This document shows positions 8,452-64,000 of a stretch of DNA of 64,000 nt, one piece after another. The stretch covers positions 25,030 through 89,029 of the forward strand of contig CBDHEC010000010.1 in the NCBI GenBank assembly GCA_965261975.1, read 5' to 3'. The position numbers and the translations under genes are program-made. The stretch comes from Alphaproteobacteria bacterium (GTDB lineage: Bacteria; Pseudomonadota; Alphaproteobacteria; UBA6615). The notes beneath the pieces were generated by a model. The model saw only the letters and a list, made by a program, of their open reading frames with translations, was not told the origin of the DNA and did not search any database. The number at the start of each line of letters is the position of its first letter. Within the stretch, counting starts at the first letter, position 1.

Positions 8452-8547
8452 GACGAACCCGCGACGAACGGCCCGGTGCGGCCGCCCCTATTCAGTAGCA
8501 AAAGCGAATTCGCGAGTCCCCGCGAAAGGTGAAAGTGCCGCCGGCGC

Positions 8548-9027
8548 TCAACCGGCCAGCCAGAGCCGGACCTCCGCCTCACGGCGGCGAACCAGCCCGG
8601 CCAGCATGCGACCCCGCGCGAATACCCAGCGGCGGAACTGGTCCGGCGCATTCCCATATTCGCCCCTGTTAATGACCCTGCGCAGGGTCGACGCCATGAG
8701 GTTGCCCGAACCGCAGTTGAAGGCGAAATCGATCAACGCGGCTTCCTGTTCCACGGAAAGCGGCACGTCGATCAAACGGTCAACCGAGCCCGCCGCCCGG
8801 GACATATCTTTCATCAGCAATCGAAATGCCGCGTCCCGGTCGGACAACGGCGCCCATCGGGCCAAGTCCGCGTTCGGTTCACGAGACAGAAGATGCCCAT
8901 AGCCAATGGTCGGGTAGCCAACCGGGTCATGATAGGGCTCGAGCGAAAGACCCTCGAAACTCTCGGCCAGAAATGCGGCCTCCGCGAGGGCGGGGTGGCT
9001 CCCGGCATCTCTGGGACCATCGGTCAT
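8548..9027 (-). CDS. Phage-type lysozyme / endolysin (GH24)
   Basis: Intact E-x8-D-x5-T triad (FEGLSLEPYHDPVGYPTIGYGH), FAFNCG, GLVRRREAE; ATGA overlap with the upstream gene. Confidence 0.93.
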   Translation of the reverse strand: MTDGPRDAGSHPALAEAAFLAESFEGLSLEPYHDPVGYPTIGYGHLLSREPNADLARWAPLSDRDAAFRLLMKDMSRAAGSVDRLIDVPLSVEQEAALIDFAFNCGSGNLMASTLRRVINRGEYGNAPDQFRRWVFARGRMLAGLVRRREAEVRLWLAG

Positions 9028-9566
9028 ACGCTGTTGTTCGCCCGCCGGCGGACCCGGTCACCGAACCAGAAGCCAAGAATGACGAATAAAATATCTTGGT
9101 CGAACGCGGTGTAAAAACCGTTCGTCGTGAACACTTCCAACGCCCGGGCCGTGAGCGAATTTGCCGTGTCCTTCGTCCCGAAAATCAGCTGGAACTGTCC
9201 CGCCTTGTGCAGCCCGTAGAGACCAAACACCCAATATGAAACGGTCGGCCGTACCGCCGAGATCAACCAGTCCAGTGCGGCAAACGACATGAATGCCAGG
9301 TTGAATGACCAGCGCCAGACATGATCCTGGTTCGCCGCCGCTTCGAGCAGTTTCACGCCATAGGATTGCCGCGATCGTCGCGCGGAACGCCGGTCAGCGA
9401 GCGCGAACTCGACCTCGAGCTGTTCGAGGCGATAGGCGTGATTCTTTTCTGCCAGCTCTGCCTGCAGGCGCAGCATCTGCGTTTCCTGCCTATGGTCGAT
9501 CCACTGTTTTCCGATACCGAACAGGTCCGGCACGAAAGGCGCGAGAAATCCCAAGATGGCGAGCAT
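9024..9566 (-). CDS. Putative holin (resembles the 3TM GTA-release holin family)
   Basis: Amphipathic N-terminus, coiled coil, VRP motif before a TM helix, C-terminal ILGFWFGDR plus basic tail; GGAGG RBS; coupled to the lysozyme. Confidence 0.7.
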   Translation of the reverse strand: MLAILGFLAPFVPDLFGIGKQWIDHRQETQMLRLQAELAEKNHAYRLEQLEVEFALADRRSARRSRQSYGVKLLEAAANQDHVWRWSFNLAFMSFAALDWLISAVRPTVSYWVFGLYGLHKAGQFQLIFGTKDTANSLTARALEVFTTNGFYTAFDQDILFVILGFWFGDRVRRRANNSV

Positions 9567-9697
9567 TTTTATCCTCCCGACGTCGTGCGCAGTCGCACGC
9601 ATCGGGCGGTGTGCACGGCGCGTTCATCGATGATGGGAACAAAAACAGGAGGAAAGTATTCGAACCGGATATGTGGGTAAAACTTGAAGTGCAGCCG
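9567..9697 (-). promoter_or_regulatory. Holin leader: shared motif CGGCTGCACTTCA, CATCATC-N7-GCGCC element and hairpin over the RBS
   Basis: Plus-strand TGAAGTGCAGCCG at 9685-9697 is identical to 60292-60304; hairpin CCCGA..CGTGCG-CAGT-CGCACG..TCGGG at 9576-9606. Confidence 0.6.
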
Positions 9698-9816
9698 GAC
9701 CGATCGAACGCCGTGCCCGCTCAATCTTTGGCCAAGTTTGACATGTCCCTCTCCGACCAAACATCGTACAACCGGCTTGCTTCCTTCAGCCCGCCTTAAC
9801 CCTTTCCCCTGGGCCC

Positions 9817-56530: not shown

Positions 56531-57169
56531 CTATTCGCCGAACCCCTCGATGTCATCCCCATAGGCGGCGTGGGCGAGATCGGATCGCCGGGCGACCGCC
56601 TGGCGATGTTCGGAATGGGCACGATCGAGCAACGCTGCGCGGAATTCGGGGTCGGACTCCAGGGCCGACAATTGCGCGCGCGCCTCCGCCGCCGAATGCC
56701 CGATGCGCGCTGCTTTGCCGCCGATGAACGCATCTTCACCCATCGCGCCGCCCAGCTTTGCAAATGCGCGCACCATATCCGGGTGATCGCCCAGATACTG
56801 GCCGTCGGCTAGACGCAGCTGGCGCACATCGTCCACACGGTCGCCGAAGGCCGCCACAAACGCCCGGTTGGCCAGGTCGATTCGGGCATCGAATTCCCCG
56901 CCCCATTCCCGGCGCAACCCGGTCTCTGCCGCATCAAGTGCACGTTCCCGCGCGGCGTTCGTATCCTGCCAGGCCGCCCCCTGCAGCTCGACATAACCTT
57001 CGAGCAGGGATCGTGCCTGCTCGTCCGTCAGGTCCGACGCGTGCATCCGGTCGAGCATCTGTGCCTGGAGCTCCTCGTCCCACGGCATTCCGTCCGGCCG
57101 TGCCAGCCCGTCCACATCATATCCGTCCGGTGTCTCCTGTTCTGGGCGAAGGAAATTGAACTGAGGCAT
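56531..57169 (-). CDS. Phage capsid scaffolding/assembly protein (podovirus-type)
   Basis: P..PDGY, LTDEQA, LRREWG..FD, LGDHP..VRAFAKLG..MGED, C-terminal H.EH..AV motifs recalled from BPP-1/epsilon15-like scaffolds. Confidence 0.7.
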   Translation of the reverse strand: MPQFNFLRPEQETPDGYDVDGLARPDGMPWDEELQAQMLDRMHASDLTDEQARSLLEGYVELQGAAWQDTNAARERALDAAETGLRREWGGEFDARIDLANRAFVAAFGDRVDDVRQLRLADGQYLGDHPDMVRAFAKLGGAMGEDAFIGGKAARIGHSAAEARAQLSALESDPEFRAALLDRAHSEHRQAVARRSDLAHAAYGDDIEGFGE

Positions 57170-57203
57170 TGCCCGGATGCGGCGTCGGTGCTTGGATCGG
57201 GGC

Positions 57204-58212: not shown

Positions 58213-59712
58213 TCAGGTAAACGGGTCCCAGTCCATGCCCACCGTTGCCGGGTAATCCTGCGCCGGCCCCGGCGCGCGGTAGCCCACCGCGAACATCCGG
58301 AAGGCGTCGGCCCCGTGGGAGGCCGCATCGTGGTGGGGCCGGTCGCGCCACACACCGCGCGTGTCGTCCCAGGCCCGTCGATAGCCGTCCAGGTGCCGCA
58401 GCCCCGCATCGCAACGCGCGGCGTCAAACCAGCACCCCGCCAGCGCGTTGCGCACCGCCTGGATGTCCGTGCCCAGGTCCTTCGCGCGCGGCACGGTCAC
58501 GATCGGGCGCAGACCCAGGTCTTCCAGCATGCGCCGGCGCGACAGCCCGCTGCCCAGCTCGCGCACCTCCACGTCATGGGGCAGGTAATGGCAACCATAG
58601 GTGTAGGGCCGGTCGCGCAAGGCCTGCACGTAATGCGCCAGCCCCTCCCCTTCGTTTTCGTAATAGTCGATGAAGCGATCCTCGCGCCCCGCCCGCTGAT
58701 GAAACCAGATCGCGTTCACATCGTTGATGCCCAGGTCCCAGAAGGTGCTGACCGGTAGCGCCGGGTCATGGGGCAGGCTCAAAATCCGCCCCTCGGCGCG
58801 CACCCGCGCCATCTCGCGGGCGTAGTACGCCCCGGCCACCGAGGCCGCGAACGCCTCGTCCGGGGTGGCGGGAAACTCGCGGCACATGGCGTCCCCCTGC
58901 TGGGCGGCCTTGCGGACATACCAGGCCTTCTGCGTCGGGCTGAGGCGGATGCCTGCGCTGTCCAGCTCGGCGAAATACCGCGCCAGCTTCTCGGGGACCG
59001 TCACCCCCTCGGGGGCCAGCACATAGCCCGGGTGGCGCCACCAGGGGAAGAAGTGAAACCGGAAATCCAGCGCCGTCAGCGGCGCGCCCTCGGCGGCCCG
59101 GTTGCGGGCATTCGTACAGAACTCGAAGAAGTCGCCGTCCCGGCCCTCGGCCGTCGATTCGATGAAAATATGCTGGCCCGGATGCACGGTGTTCAGCGCC
59201 CCGGCGCGGATCTCCGCCGCCTTGTCCGGGTAGCGCGCGCAGATCTTCCCGTGTTCGGAGACATGCAGATACTGGAACGTGCCCGAGCGCAGGCTGGTCC
59301 CGACCCGCAGGCTCGACCCGTTGGCGAACGCCAGCTCGCGCGCCGAATCCCCGACCGCCGGGATGGCCCGGCGCAGCGCCCGGGGCAGCTGCTGATAGGG
59401 GTAGCGCACCTTCTCCCTGAAGATGGCCTCGGCGTCGTGGAGCGTGTGGGCCAGGGTCCCGGCGGTGATGTTCGAGTTGAACAGGCACGCATCGAGGATC
59501 AGCAGCTGGATGAAGGTGGTCATGCCCAGCTGGCGCGCCTTCAGCACCAGGTTGAGGGCATGCAGATCATCGAACAAGGCCGCCTGCGCCCAGTTCATGC
59601 GGAACTTCACCCGCCGGCCGTGGGCGTCCTTGATCCAGTAGAGATTGTTGAGCCGCCAGCGGCGGTCGGAGAAACATGCCCGTGCCGTTTCGCGATCGGG
59701 GTCTCCACTCAA
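58213..59712 (-). CDS. terL: Phage terminase large subunit
   Basis: Walker A LKARQLGMTT, Walker B YLHVSE, IESTAEG, nuclease WDLG and SHGADAFR; TTGA overlap with terS. Confidence 0.92.
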   Translation of the reverse strand: MSGDPDRETARACFSDRRWRLNNLYWIKDAHGRRVKFRMNWAQAALFDDLHALNLVLKARQLGMTTFIQLLILDACLFNSNITAGTLAHTLHDAEAIFREKVRYPYQQLPRALRRAIPAVGDSARELAFANGSSLRVGTSLRSGTFQYLHVSEHGKICARYPDKAAEIRAGALNTVHPGQHIFIESTAEGRDGDFFEFCTNARNRAAEGAPLTALDFRFHFFPWWRHPGYVLAPEGVTVPEKLARYFAELDSAGIRLSPTQKAWYVRKAAQQGDAMCREFPATPDEAFAASVAGAYYAREMARVRAEGRILSLPHDPALPVSTFWDLGINDVNAIWFHQRAGREDRFIDYYENEGEGLAHYVQALRDRPYTYGCHYLPHDVEVRELGSGLSRRRMLEDLGLRPIVTVPRAKDLGTDIQAVRNALAGCWFDAARCDAGLRHLDGYRRAWDDTRGVWRDRPHHDAASHGADAFRMFAVGYRAPGPAQDYPATVGMDWDPFT

Positions 59713-60167
59713 TGCGACCGTTCCCTAACATGCGGGTTATCGCCGCCATCGATCTCGCGCAGAAGACTGCGCAGATCATCGCCGGCCTCTCTTCCGCTGC
59801 CGTCCCCATACAGGCGCGGGCGGCGCGCGCGCAGCAACAGCATCAGCATCCGGTCGGAGTATTTCCGGATCGCACCGACTTTCTGGCCCTGAAAATAGAC
59901 CGGTTCCTCATGCCCGGTGACCGCCCGGCGGATCGCCTCGTCCTCGACCGCGTCGATACCGATCTCCAGCGCCTCGTCCCAGGCCTCGGCGAACAGCGGG
60001 TCGGATTTCCGCAGCCGATACCACTTACCCCGATACACGCCCGTCGCCTGCGACGCGGCGGTGACGCTGGCCGTCTCGGCCAACATCTCGAGAAACGCCT
60101 CGCGGCGGGCCTTGTTGAGCCGGGTCGAACCATGGGGCCGGCGGCGGGGTTTCGCGTCCTGCGCCAT
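59709..60167 (-). CDS. terS: Phage terminase small subunit (HTH)
   Basis: FLEMLAETASVTAAS..GV..WY..R..DP.FAEAWDEAL; EAIRRA; YSDRMLMLLL; GGAGG RBS; coupled to terL. Confidence 0.85.
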   Translation of the reverse strand: MAQDAKPRRRPHGSTRLNKARREAFLEMLAETASVTAASQATGVYRGKWYRLRKSDPLFAEAWDEALEIGIDAVEDEAIRRAVTGHEEPVYFQGQKVGAIRKYSDRMLMLLLRARRPRLYGDGSGREAGDDLRSLLREIDGGDNPHVRERSH

Positions 60168-60199: not shown

Positions 60200-60231
60200 A
60201 AAGCAAAACCCGCCGGAGGGACCCCGGCGGG
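60200..60231 (-). terminator. Intrinsic terminator inside the terS 5' leader
   Basis: Sense strand CCCGCCGG-GGTCCCT-CCGGCGGG-TTTTGCTTT, ending about 32 nt before the terS ATG. Confidence 0.75.
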
Positions 60232-60304
60232 CGCAACTTTGTGATCATGAATTTCGTGCACGCTATACCCGCGCAAGGATGAATGCAAAACTGAAGTGCA
60301 GCCG
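60232..60304 (-). promoter_or_regulatory. terS promoter region with the motif shared with the holin leader
   Basis: Sense CGGCTGCACTTCAGTTTT...GGTATAGC...CATGATCACAAAGTTGCG. Confidence 0.6.
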
Positions 60305-63352: not shown

Positions 63353-64000
63353 ATGACCAGAATCCTCTGTATCGAAGACGAAGCCGAGCTGCGCGAAGAC
63401 ATTGTCGAAGAGCTCGCGGATGCCGGTTACGAGATGATCGAGGCCGCCAACGGCCGCGAGGGATTTGACGCCATCGTCGCGCACAAACCCGATCTGGTCC
63501 TCTGCGACGTGAACATGCCCGACATGAATGGGTACGAGCTGCTGACGAAACTGCGCGAATCTTTCGAGGAATATGACAATGTACCGTTCGTATTTCTCTC
63601 GGCCCTGGCCGACCGAAAAGACATCATCACAGGCAAGAAACTCGGCGCCGACGACTATCTGACGAAACCCGTCGATTTCGAGATGCTCCTCGTGACCGTC
63701 GAATCCCGCGTCCGCCAGATCACGCGAATCAACCGGCACAAGGAAGAGCAGCTCGTCCGGCTCTACCGTGCGCTTTCCGAGTCCCGGGAAACCGGAGACG
63801 AGAGTCCGGCACCGGTCATCACCGGTGACCCCATGACCGTCGTCATCGTCGTCGACGCAGAGTTCGATCTTTCGGAAATTCGCACAGCACTGGAGAAGGG
63901 CGGGCACAGCGTCATCGAAATGAACAGCGGCAAGCAGTTTCTCGACAGCCATGAGAGCATCACGCCGGATCTGCTCATCGTGTCGTTCAACACCAGCGAT
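63353..64000 (+). CDS. Response regulator, receiver plus second receiver-like domain (runs off the window)
   Basis: Manual translation MTRILCIEDE...DLVLCDVNMP...FLSA...YLTKP; not in the ORF track. Confidence 0.9.
   Translation, partial: MTRILCIEDEAELREDIVEELADAGYEMIEAANGREGFDAIVAHKPDLVLCDVNMPDMNGYELLTKLRESFEEYDNVPFVFLSALADRKDIITGKKLGADDYLTKPVDFEMLLVTVESRVRQITRINRHKEEQLVRLYRALSESRETGDESPAPVITGDPMTVVIVVDAEFDLSEIRTALEKGGHSVIEMNSGKQFLDSHESITPDLLIVSFNTSD

Follow-up and report, generated by a model that had tools for sequence, protein, structure and literature searches.

The shared word and its two leaders

Two leaders some 50 kb apart, that of a holin-like gene and that of the small terminase gene terS, contain the same 13-base word, and the question raised by this locus is whether one regulator acts through that word on both lysis and packaging. 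The window, by which we mean the whole stretch of 64,000 nucleotides that was analyzed, lies on contig C10 of its own assembly, G000 (3.03 Mb, 59 contigs, 94.6% complete). On the plus strand, TGAAGTGCAGCCG was found at 9685-9697 and at 60292-60304, and these two are its only exact occurrences in the 3,028,418 bases of the assembly; allowing up to one mismatch gave 5 sites and up to two gave 92. Both copies lie within phage-derived DNA and are sense-oriented about 120 nt 5' of the phage-derived operons found in the assembly, at 119 nt from the ATG of the holin-like gene (9566) and 125 nt from that of terS (60167), both on the minus strand. The sequence-only reading, which had reported an identical word in equal orientation at these distances, thus proved exact. 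It was also right that the distance to the divergent host genes is not kept (120 nt to the MFS start on the holin side and 19 nt to the GDSL start on the terS side) and that the leaders contain GGAT together with GTAAAAC (holin) or GCAAAAC (terS). The features concerned are the following.

8453..9805 (approximate extent), no strand assigned: inserted lysis cassette together with its 13-mer-bearing leader, delimited by comparison with cassette-free relatives
8548..9027, minus strand: endolysin (Phage_lysozyme PF00959, E 4e-36; phrog_7)
9024..9566, minus strand: gene for a holin-like membrane protein of 180 aa, starting with the ATG at 9566 (phrog_6637, function unknown)
9653..9681, minus strand: putative weak promoter of the lysis cassette, TTTACC (9676-9681), N17, TACTTT (9653-9658), proposed from reading the sequence
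9685..9697, minus strand: 13-mer copy of the holin leader (sense CGGCTGCACTTCA)
56543..57136, minus strand: 5'-truncated remnant (last 198 codons) of a phrog_3742-like virion gene, at the far edge of an ~11-kb deletion
58213..59712, minus strand: large terminase terL (phrog_2472/26724/2)
59709..60167, minus strand: small terminase terS (phrog_4044)
60208..60304, minus strand: late promoter/leader module predicted from conservation, with upstream element CTGCACTTCA, -35, -10, box, and terminator
60208-60232, minus strand: intrinsic terminator of the module, an 11-bp stem (9 GC) and a T-run
60241-60261, minus strand: invariant box of the module, GTGCACGAAATTCATGATCAC, from the alignment of copies
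60260-60265, minus strand: putative -10 of the module, TAGCGT, with a 17-nt spacer to the -35, from the conservation pattern
60283-60288, minus strand: putative -35 of the module, TTGCAT, from the conservation pattern
60292..60304, minus strand: 13-mer copy of the terS leader, at the upstream edge of its module

The terS leader module

Copies of the terS leader module were gathered via the relatives of terL (42 loci) and by pattern scans, and 23 of them, the window's included, were aligned (alignment A6). In sense, the module reads CTGCAnT, N6, TTGC, N19, TA, G.GTGCACGAAATTCA.GATCA, GCCCG...CGGGC/T, and a T-run. The TG of the element, the TTGC, the TA, 19 positions of the box, and the GCCCG are invariant in the alignment, and in CTGCAnT the two C's, the A, and the final T are each conserved in at least 90% of copies. 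The G000 module agrees with its relatives at 33 of the 33 invariant positions, and since the synonymous divergence between G000 and the related genome G011 amounts to 0.57 to 1.05, this identity indicates that the module is under constraint. The terminator stem is kept in 21 to 23 of the 23 copies, with no compensatory double changes. The distance from the element to the box is fixed, while that from the element to the GDSL gene varies among relatives from ~40 to >200 nt, so the element belongs to the terS side. Judged from this pattern, the terS leader appears to be a late promoter followed by an invariant box and, ahead of the first late gene, by an intrinsic terminator; phage late leaders under antitermination control are built in this way. 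The putative hexamers TTGCAT and TAGCGT each match the E. coli consensus at only 3 of 6 positions, which is weak, and a scan with an E. coli-type consensus found no promoter in either leader. The words GAAATT and CA(T/G)GAT, both of the NANNNT type, stand at invariant positions and would be among the first transcribed from the start site that we infer.

With up to 2 mismatches, the box was found in 9 of 61 related genomes, in one or two copies each and always at terS; we therefore rejected the idea that the module marks a wider regulon. In 29 locus records, 5 of which do not extend far enough to include terS, each copy is placed between GDSL and terS in the orientation of terS, except that in L045, from the G018 prophage, it stands directly before terS. 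A scan of metagenome contigs for the box gave 30 matches at 24 loci, of which 21 were read as true modules; the 9 that were dropped lie within unrelated sequence (L068, L069, L070, L072, L075, L079, L082, L084, and L088). No stretch with the box was found in viral contigs.

Three further observations were made on the module. A conserved inverted repeat with arms ~40 bp apart, TGCAC in the element and GTGCA in the box (A6 columns 17-21 and 56-60; window ~60296-60300 and 60257-60261), brackets the core promoter and might serve a dimer as two half-sites. Two subtypes exist, TTGCAT...TAGC and TTGCCG...TAGG. A palindrome, GGCGCC-N3-GGCGCC, with ACGGTyCG after it, stands just 5' of the module in L002, L005, L006, L046, L073, and L086 and is absent from the window; it could be the terminator of an upstream gene or an operator.

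A candidate late factor in related genomes

The intact prophage of G018 has the order cI-like S24 repressor, 192-aa ORF, module, terS, terL, portal, head, and tail, and the 192-aa ORF ends ~35 nt before the -35 of the module. Of 11 same-genus genomes, 10 contain homologues of this protein (198 aa, ~40% identical); the gene is intact, and located in the same island, in 7 of the 11 and broken or fragmentary in 3 (G001, G006, and G008). In G010 and G011 (segment records L102 and L103), the order is terL, terS, module, GDSL, HK, RR, enolase-like, panE-like, 198-aa gene, small HTH, and cI-like, so that five non-phage genes separate the module from the 198-aa gene.

A profile of the 198-aa family compared with an alignment of 23 DUF6456 domains gave an hhalign probability of 80.3% (E 1.4e-5, 123 columns; control alignment, 0.2%), and an Atlas look-alike cluster of the family is DUF6456 (score 0.92). 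The DUF6456 link comes from profile-profile comparison only: hmmscan and hmmsearch returned nothing significant, the best E of the 198-aa profile against 23 DUF6456 ORFs plus 177 decoys being 0.15. Pfam and PHROGs gave no name to the 192/198-aa protein, apart from a subthreshold DUF6416 hit (18 bits; 16 of 20 members), a PDB sequence search with the profile returned unrelated hits at E values of at least 0.077, and the structure model (mean pLDDT of 50.5) was too poor to use. With its gene next to the module in G018 and in the same island in relatives, the 192/198-aa DUF6456-like (GafA/GafZ-like) protein is the best candidate for the late factor.

Contig C10 ends at window position 64000, inside the RR gene and ~2 to 3 kb before the syntenic position of the regulator. 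The G000 contigs contain no 198-aa, small-HTH, or cI-like gene and no PF20057 (DUF6456) hit, the Caulobacter control being positive and the contig ending before the place in question; the ~90%-identical enolase-like and panE-like neighbors are absent from them too. The regulator segment of G000 is thus either unassembled or deleted. The GafA/GafY/GafZ-like factor invoked by the sequence-only reading therefore has a candidate family in the relatives and no representative in the G000 assembly.

The holin-endolysin cassette

The holin-like gene overlaps the start of the endolysin gene by 4 nt, and hydrophobic stretches are visible on reading its translation; no Pfam family matched it. The two genes form an insertion of ~1.35 kb between ilvD and the MFS gene, which are separated by about 125 to 160 nt in the cassette-free genomes G010, G007, G002, G009, and G001. 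Among 46 family genomes, the holin-like gene is present in three at one common site, intact in G000 and G011 (87% identical) and broken in G008, and no relative was found in viral or metagenome contigs. Between G000 and G011, dN/dS is 0.084 for the holin-like gene and 0.10 for the endolysin gene; both are thus under purifying selection and presumably expressed from some promoter.

The holin leader compared with the module

The two leaders have a common geometry, the 13-mer, N3, a hexamer, N17, and TAnnnT: at the holin gene the putative TTTACC-N17-TACTTT stands at the same offsets from the 13-mer as TTGCAT-N17-TAGCGT does at terS. Other parts of the module have no counterpart there. The holin site has TTAC in place of the TTGC found in 23 of 23 module copies, and in register its spacing from CTGC to this tetrad is N10, versus N9 in the modules. 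The invariant box is absent from the holin leader, as is any terminator-like site, and Rfam gave no hits in it. A profile built from 12 module copies of other genomes scored the terS leader at an E of 6.8e-33 and the holin leader at 3.5 bits (E=76), far down the list. Given this score and the lack of similarity downstream, we rejected the idea that the holin leader arose by decay from an entire module copy.

That downstream similarity was gauged on the 118- and 124-nt stretches that follow the 13-mer. Their semi-global alignment score was 4.0, dinucleotide shuffles gave a mean of 6.33 +/- 2.48, and a score at least as high was reached by 1748 of 2000 shuffles and, among real upstream segments, by 961 of 1098. 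The sequence-only reading had proposed that both leaders go on with CATnATC-N7/8-GCGCC and a hairpin. This series is present (CATCATC-N7-GCGCC in the holin leader and CATGATC-N8-GCGCC in the terS leader, with one hairpin in each), but it carries no weight, as the similarity does not rise above that of shuffles, and the hairpins differ in kind, that of terS being terminator-like with a stem and then a T-run.

Nor was the word kept in the orthologous holin leader of G011, the sole other genome with both loci intact and one in which the regulator gene is intact too. The holin leaders of G000 and G011 are identical at 134 of 272 columns, G011 retains 8 of the 13 bases of the word, which is about the background identity, and its own holin and terS leaders have no common stretch of more than 8 nt. 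The holin leader of G008 retains 12 of 13 bases, which is uninformative because that leader is nearly identical throughout. A look for the element elsewhere in genomes was also unfavorable to a shared site: allowing up to one mismatch, CTGCACTNNANTTTTGC, which spans the element plus TTGC, occurred once per genome, at terS, in five genomes, with two strays in the same five, one within an ORF and one before an unrelated gene. G000 itself has two sites of the cis-element, the second of them imperfect.

Some minor motifs were noted in the holin leader. GTGCAC occurs there as well (9611-9616), 78 nt from the CTGCAC of that leader. Searching by eye with consensus sequences, we found no convincing CtrA (TTAA-N7-TTAA), alphaproteobacterial LexA, or CcrM site, and a GTTC-N7-TTCC that matches a LexA-type repeat at 7 of 8 positions.

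A working shared site or a coincidence

We tentatively favor, with a probability of about 40%, the reading that the holin and terS leaders contain a common, working activator site. The 13-mer would then represent the upstream element of a phage late promoter and lie ~3 nt 5' of its -35. The weak promoter at terS, of the sigma-70 type (TTGCAT-N17-TAGCGT), would be flanked by CTGCAnT and followed by the transcribed box and the terminator, and terS-terL would be read only once a phage-type late factor, for which the 192/198-aa DUF6456-like protein is the best candidate, activates transcription and carries RNA polymerase past the terminator. In the G000/G008 lineage, the holin-endolysin cassette, which was inserted separately, has the same element at an equal distance from a pair of hexamers like -35 and -10 and lacks the box and the terminator. 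The same factor, or a partner of it, would bind the element and switch on both operons, antitermination being needed only at terS. We infer here the promoter hexamers, the binder of the element, and any activity of the holin leader; joint control of the packaging and lysis operons is plausible. For the terS leader, the gene order in G018, the terminator, and the DUF6456-like factor make an activator- or antiterminator-dependent late promoter of the Q or GafZ kind the most economical account. The sequence-only reading had spoken of a common activator or antiterminator-loading site. What stands of this is the terS module, which is real; the holin leader, with neither box nor terminator nor TTGC and with a profile E of 76, fits the claim poorly. 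Since the shared part lies 5' of the -35 and no terminator follows in the holin leader, a functional site would be one for an activator or for recruitment rather than for loading an antiterminator. The link between packaging and lysis through one site rests on a single match of ~20 nt, confined to the G000/G008 lineage.

The principal rival, rather unlikely in our estimate, is that the terS module is real and the holin-side word matches it by chance, with neither origin nor function in common. Among 143,380 pairs of intergenic-like segments of G000, 427 (0.30%) have a common word of at least 13 bases in either orientation, so that for the single, prespecified pair of leaders the probability of a chance match is a few per thousand (~0.15 to 0.3% a priori). 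This low figure speaks against coincidence, as do the sense orientation, the similar distances to the start codons, the placement of the word exactly on the conserved element of the module, the -35-like hexamer at equal spacing, and the phage-derived surroundings of both copies. On the other hand, the match came out of scanning very many windows. When extended, it comprises 19 columns with one gap (28.9 bits), and against the whole genome its E is ~0.8 to 1.3; it ranks only second to third among the non-self hits of either leader, and the terS leader has equal or better matches in unrelated places, such as 17/17 on C56 and 15/15 on C37. Genome-wide the match is unremarkable, and its weight therefore lies in its location and not in its strength. 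Coincidence also gains from the failure of the module profile to single out the holin leader, from the lack of likeness downstream of the word, from its loss in G011, and from the violation of the invariant TTGC. Overall, we regard the 13-mer as moderately more than chance.

An eroded island and the possibility of a relic

Shared ancestry without present function offers another account, one that we consider unlikely: promoters derived from related phages would retain an ancestral patch of late promoter, or a short patch would have been copied, and the circuit would be dead in G000. The wording of the match lends this some support. The contiguous identity takes in three flanking bases, CGG, at which module copies vary, as one would expect of a chance match or a copied patch more than of a selected site, and the holin-side variant is the form of the element found in G000, G010, L076, and L077 (CTGCACTTCAG) and not the family consensus. 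Homology, though, is undetectable beyond ~20 nt.

The state of the island is likewise divided. G000 lacks the ~11-kb portal, head, and tail block between terL and the phrog_3742-like gene (window 57136-57188), and G010 keeps it (L137 2147-13230). The block of G010 is T7-like and encodes a tail-fiber-like protein, a portal (phrog_332), a major head protein (phrog_3437), internal virion proteins, and the tail tubular proteins A and B (phrog_394 and phrog_376). A portal and a head-like ORF are present also in G002 and G011, with one stop in the G011 portal. In G008, the closest relative, the holin, terL, and the 198-aa gene are all broken, and in G011 the holin is under purifying selection without the element. 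Such erosion favors a dead circuit. Against it, G000 has intact terS, terL, holin, and endolysin genes, its module agrees with the relatives at every invariant position, and loss of the regulator cannot be concluded because contig C10 ends short of the regulator's place. The terL gene, which terS overlaps, is under purifying selection (dN/dS of 0.10 to 0.28 against 7 relatives).

The terS protein was much more diverged than the adjoining terL, with, for example, 51 to 54% versus 87 to 91% amino acid identity to G007 and G002 (window against L002, L003, L046, and L047), which suggests either mosaic replacement or fast evolution of the DNA-recognition subunit.

Other readings of the module and the word

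The terS module might instead, or in addition, be a small-RNA gene whose transcript of ~50 nt acts in trans, an idea compatible with the other readings and in our judgment distinctly unlikely. It draws on the complete promoter-to-terminator unit, which is far more conserved than its surroundings, and on the tandem copies in several genomes, one of which has no terS after it. The regular position of the copies in the 29 locus records described above, between GDSL and terS and in the orientation of terS, is against it; so are the G018 prophage, in which the module stands where a late promoter is expected, and the absence of an Rfam family match (best score for the terS leader, 14.6 bits, versus a gathering score of 49.5). 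Tandem copies, 170 to 620 nt apart, were seen in L004, L005, L006, L067, L071, L077, L078, L080, and L087; the first copy is followed by noncoding DNA or by an ORF of ~115 aa with a signal-peptide-like start (a small secreted protein), and the second is followed by terS.

It is very improbable that the word acts on MFS and GDSL, the divergent host genes, and not on the phage-like ones: each of the two divergent intergenic regions does contain it, and the GDSL start codon is 19 nt away, but the distance of the word to the divergent genes is not kept while that to the box is fixed, and cassette-free genomes have the MFS gene without this leader.

Likeness to known systems and meaning

The reading of a shared activator site resembles most closely the control of RcGTA in Rhodobacter capsulatus. 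As described there, GafA binds 75 to 125 nt 5' of the TerS start, around the -35 and -10, and, with CtrA, drives a separate lysis locus (holin/endolysin) elsewhere on the chromosome; GafA homologues are annotated as DUF6456 (PMC9638019). One DUF6456 factor acting at a terS promoter and needed for a separate lysis locus is the kind of link that the sequence-only reading proposed. The systems differ in their structural genes: PF05065, PF04860, and PF13547 (HK97 capsid, portal, and GTA_TIM) gave no hits in G000, PF05065 gave none in 4 same-genus genomes, and the structural block of the relatives is T7-like podoviral. The candidate factor, ~198 aa and remotely DUF6456-like, also differs from GafA in having no recognizable DnaA-like N-terminal domain.

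In the Caulobacter GTA, GafY is reported 5' of 9 of the 10 most induced, dispersed loci, and GafZ is loaded at one promoter via a putative element between the -35 and -10 (PMC9632790, PMC11150451) and carries RNA polymerase through terminators (PMC11150451). Activation of several promoters with antitermination at one is the split proposed here. The Caulobacter terminator follows the first gene, whereas here it lies in the leader before terS; the shared element is 5' of the -35 and not in the spacer, as that of GafZ is; and no IHF site or GafY-like partner was identified in our analysis, unlike in the Caulobacter GTA.

The Q-type systems (lambda PR'/tR', phage 21, and BrrG) offer a third parallel, BrrG of the Bartonella GTA being described as an antiterminator loaded at a promoter (bioRxiv 10.1101/2024.11.20.624540). 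In common with these, the regulator gene of G018 is directly 5' of the late promoter, NANNNT-type words follow the putative promoter, then the intrinsic terminator, then terS and the late genes, and terL is ~50% identical to that of lambdoid phages. In contrast, the 198-aa protein showed no sequence link to Q proteins (the best PDB hit, at an E of 0.077, was an unrelated protein), the promoter is weak by the E. coli consensus while PbgtA-K is described as near-consensus (bioRxiv 10.1101/2024.11.20.624540), and the Q-type leader features, the box and the terminator, are missing from the holin leader.

A broader scheme can be drawn from these likenesses, although we consider it improbable as a whole. 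The genus and a neighboring genus would carry, at a fixed chromosomal place, an element of T7-like podoviral origin that is inherited vertically and consists of the cI-like repressor, the small HTH, the GafZ-like 198-aa factor, the module, terS, terL, portal, head, and tail. This element would act as a new gene transfer agent, not of the RcGTA type, or as a phage-responsive device, switched by GafZ-like antitermination, and the lysis cassette of G000 and G008, acquired independently, would be wired into it via CTGCACTTCA. Should the shared word be a working site, the locus would add a second, independent case in which a single phage-derived factor couples packaging with lysis across distant loci, a logic known in detail so far from the RcGTA, Caulobacter, and Bartonella GTAs alone, and its backbone would be T7-like and podoviral, in uncultured marine Alphaproteobacteria. 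If the holin copy is a chance match or a relic, the finding shrinks to an ordinary eroded late promoter of a prophage. Irrespective of that copy, the terS module remains a compact cis-element that Rfam lacks; it has an obvious candidate factor, with which it would extend DUF6456/GafZ-type control beyond the classical GTAs.

A minor observation concerns G014, in which the first 60 residues of the holin-like protein have six weak matches (~29% identity) and the N-terminal part of the 198-aa protein has four, which suggests that this genome harbors multiple related phage-like elements.
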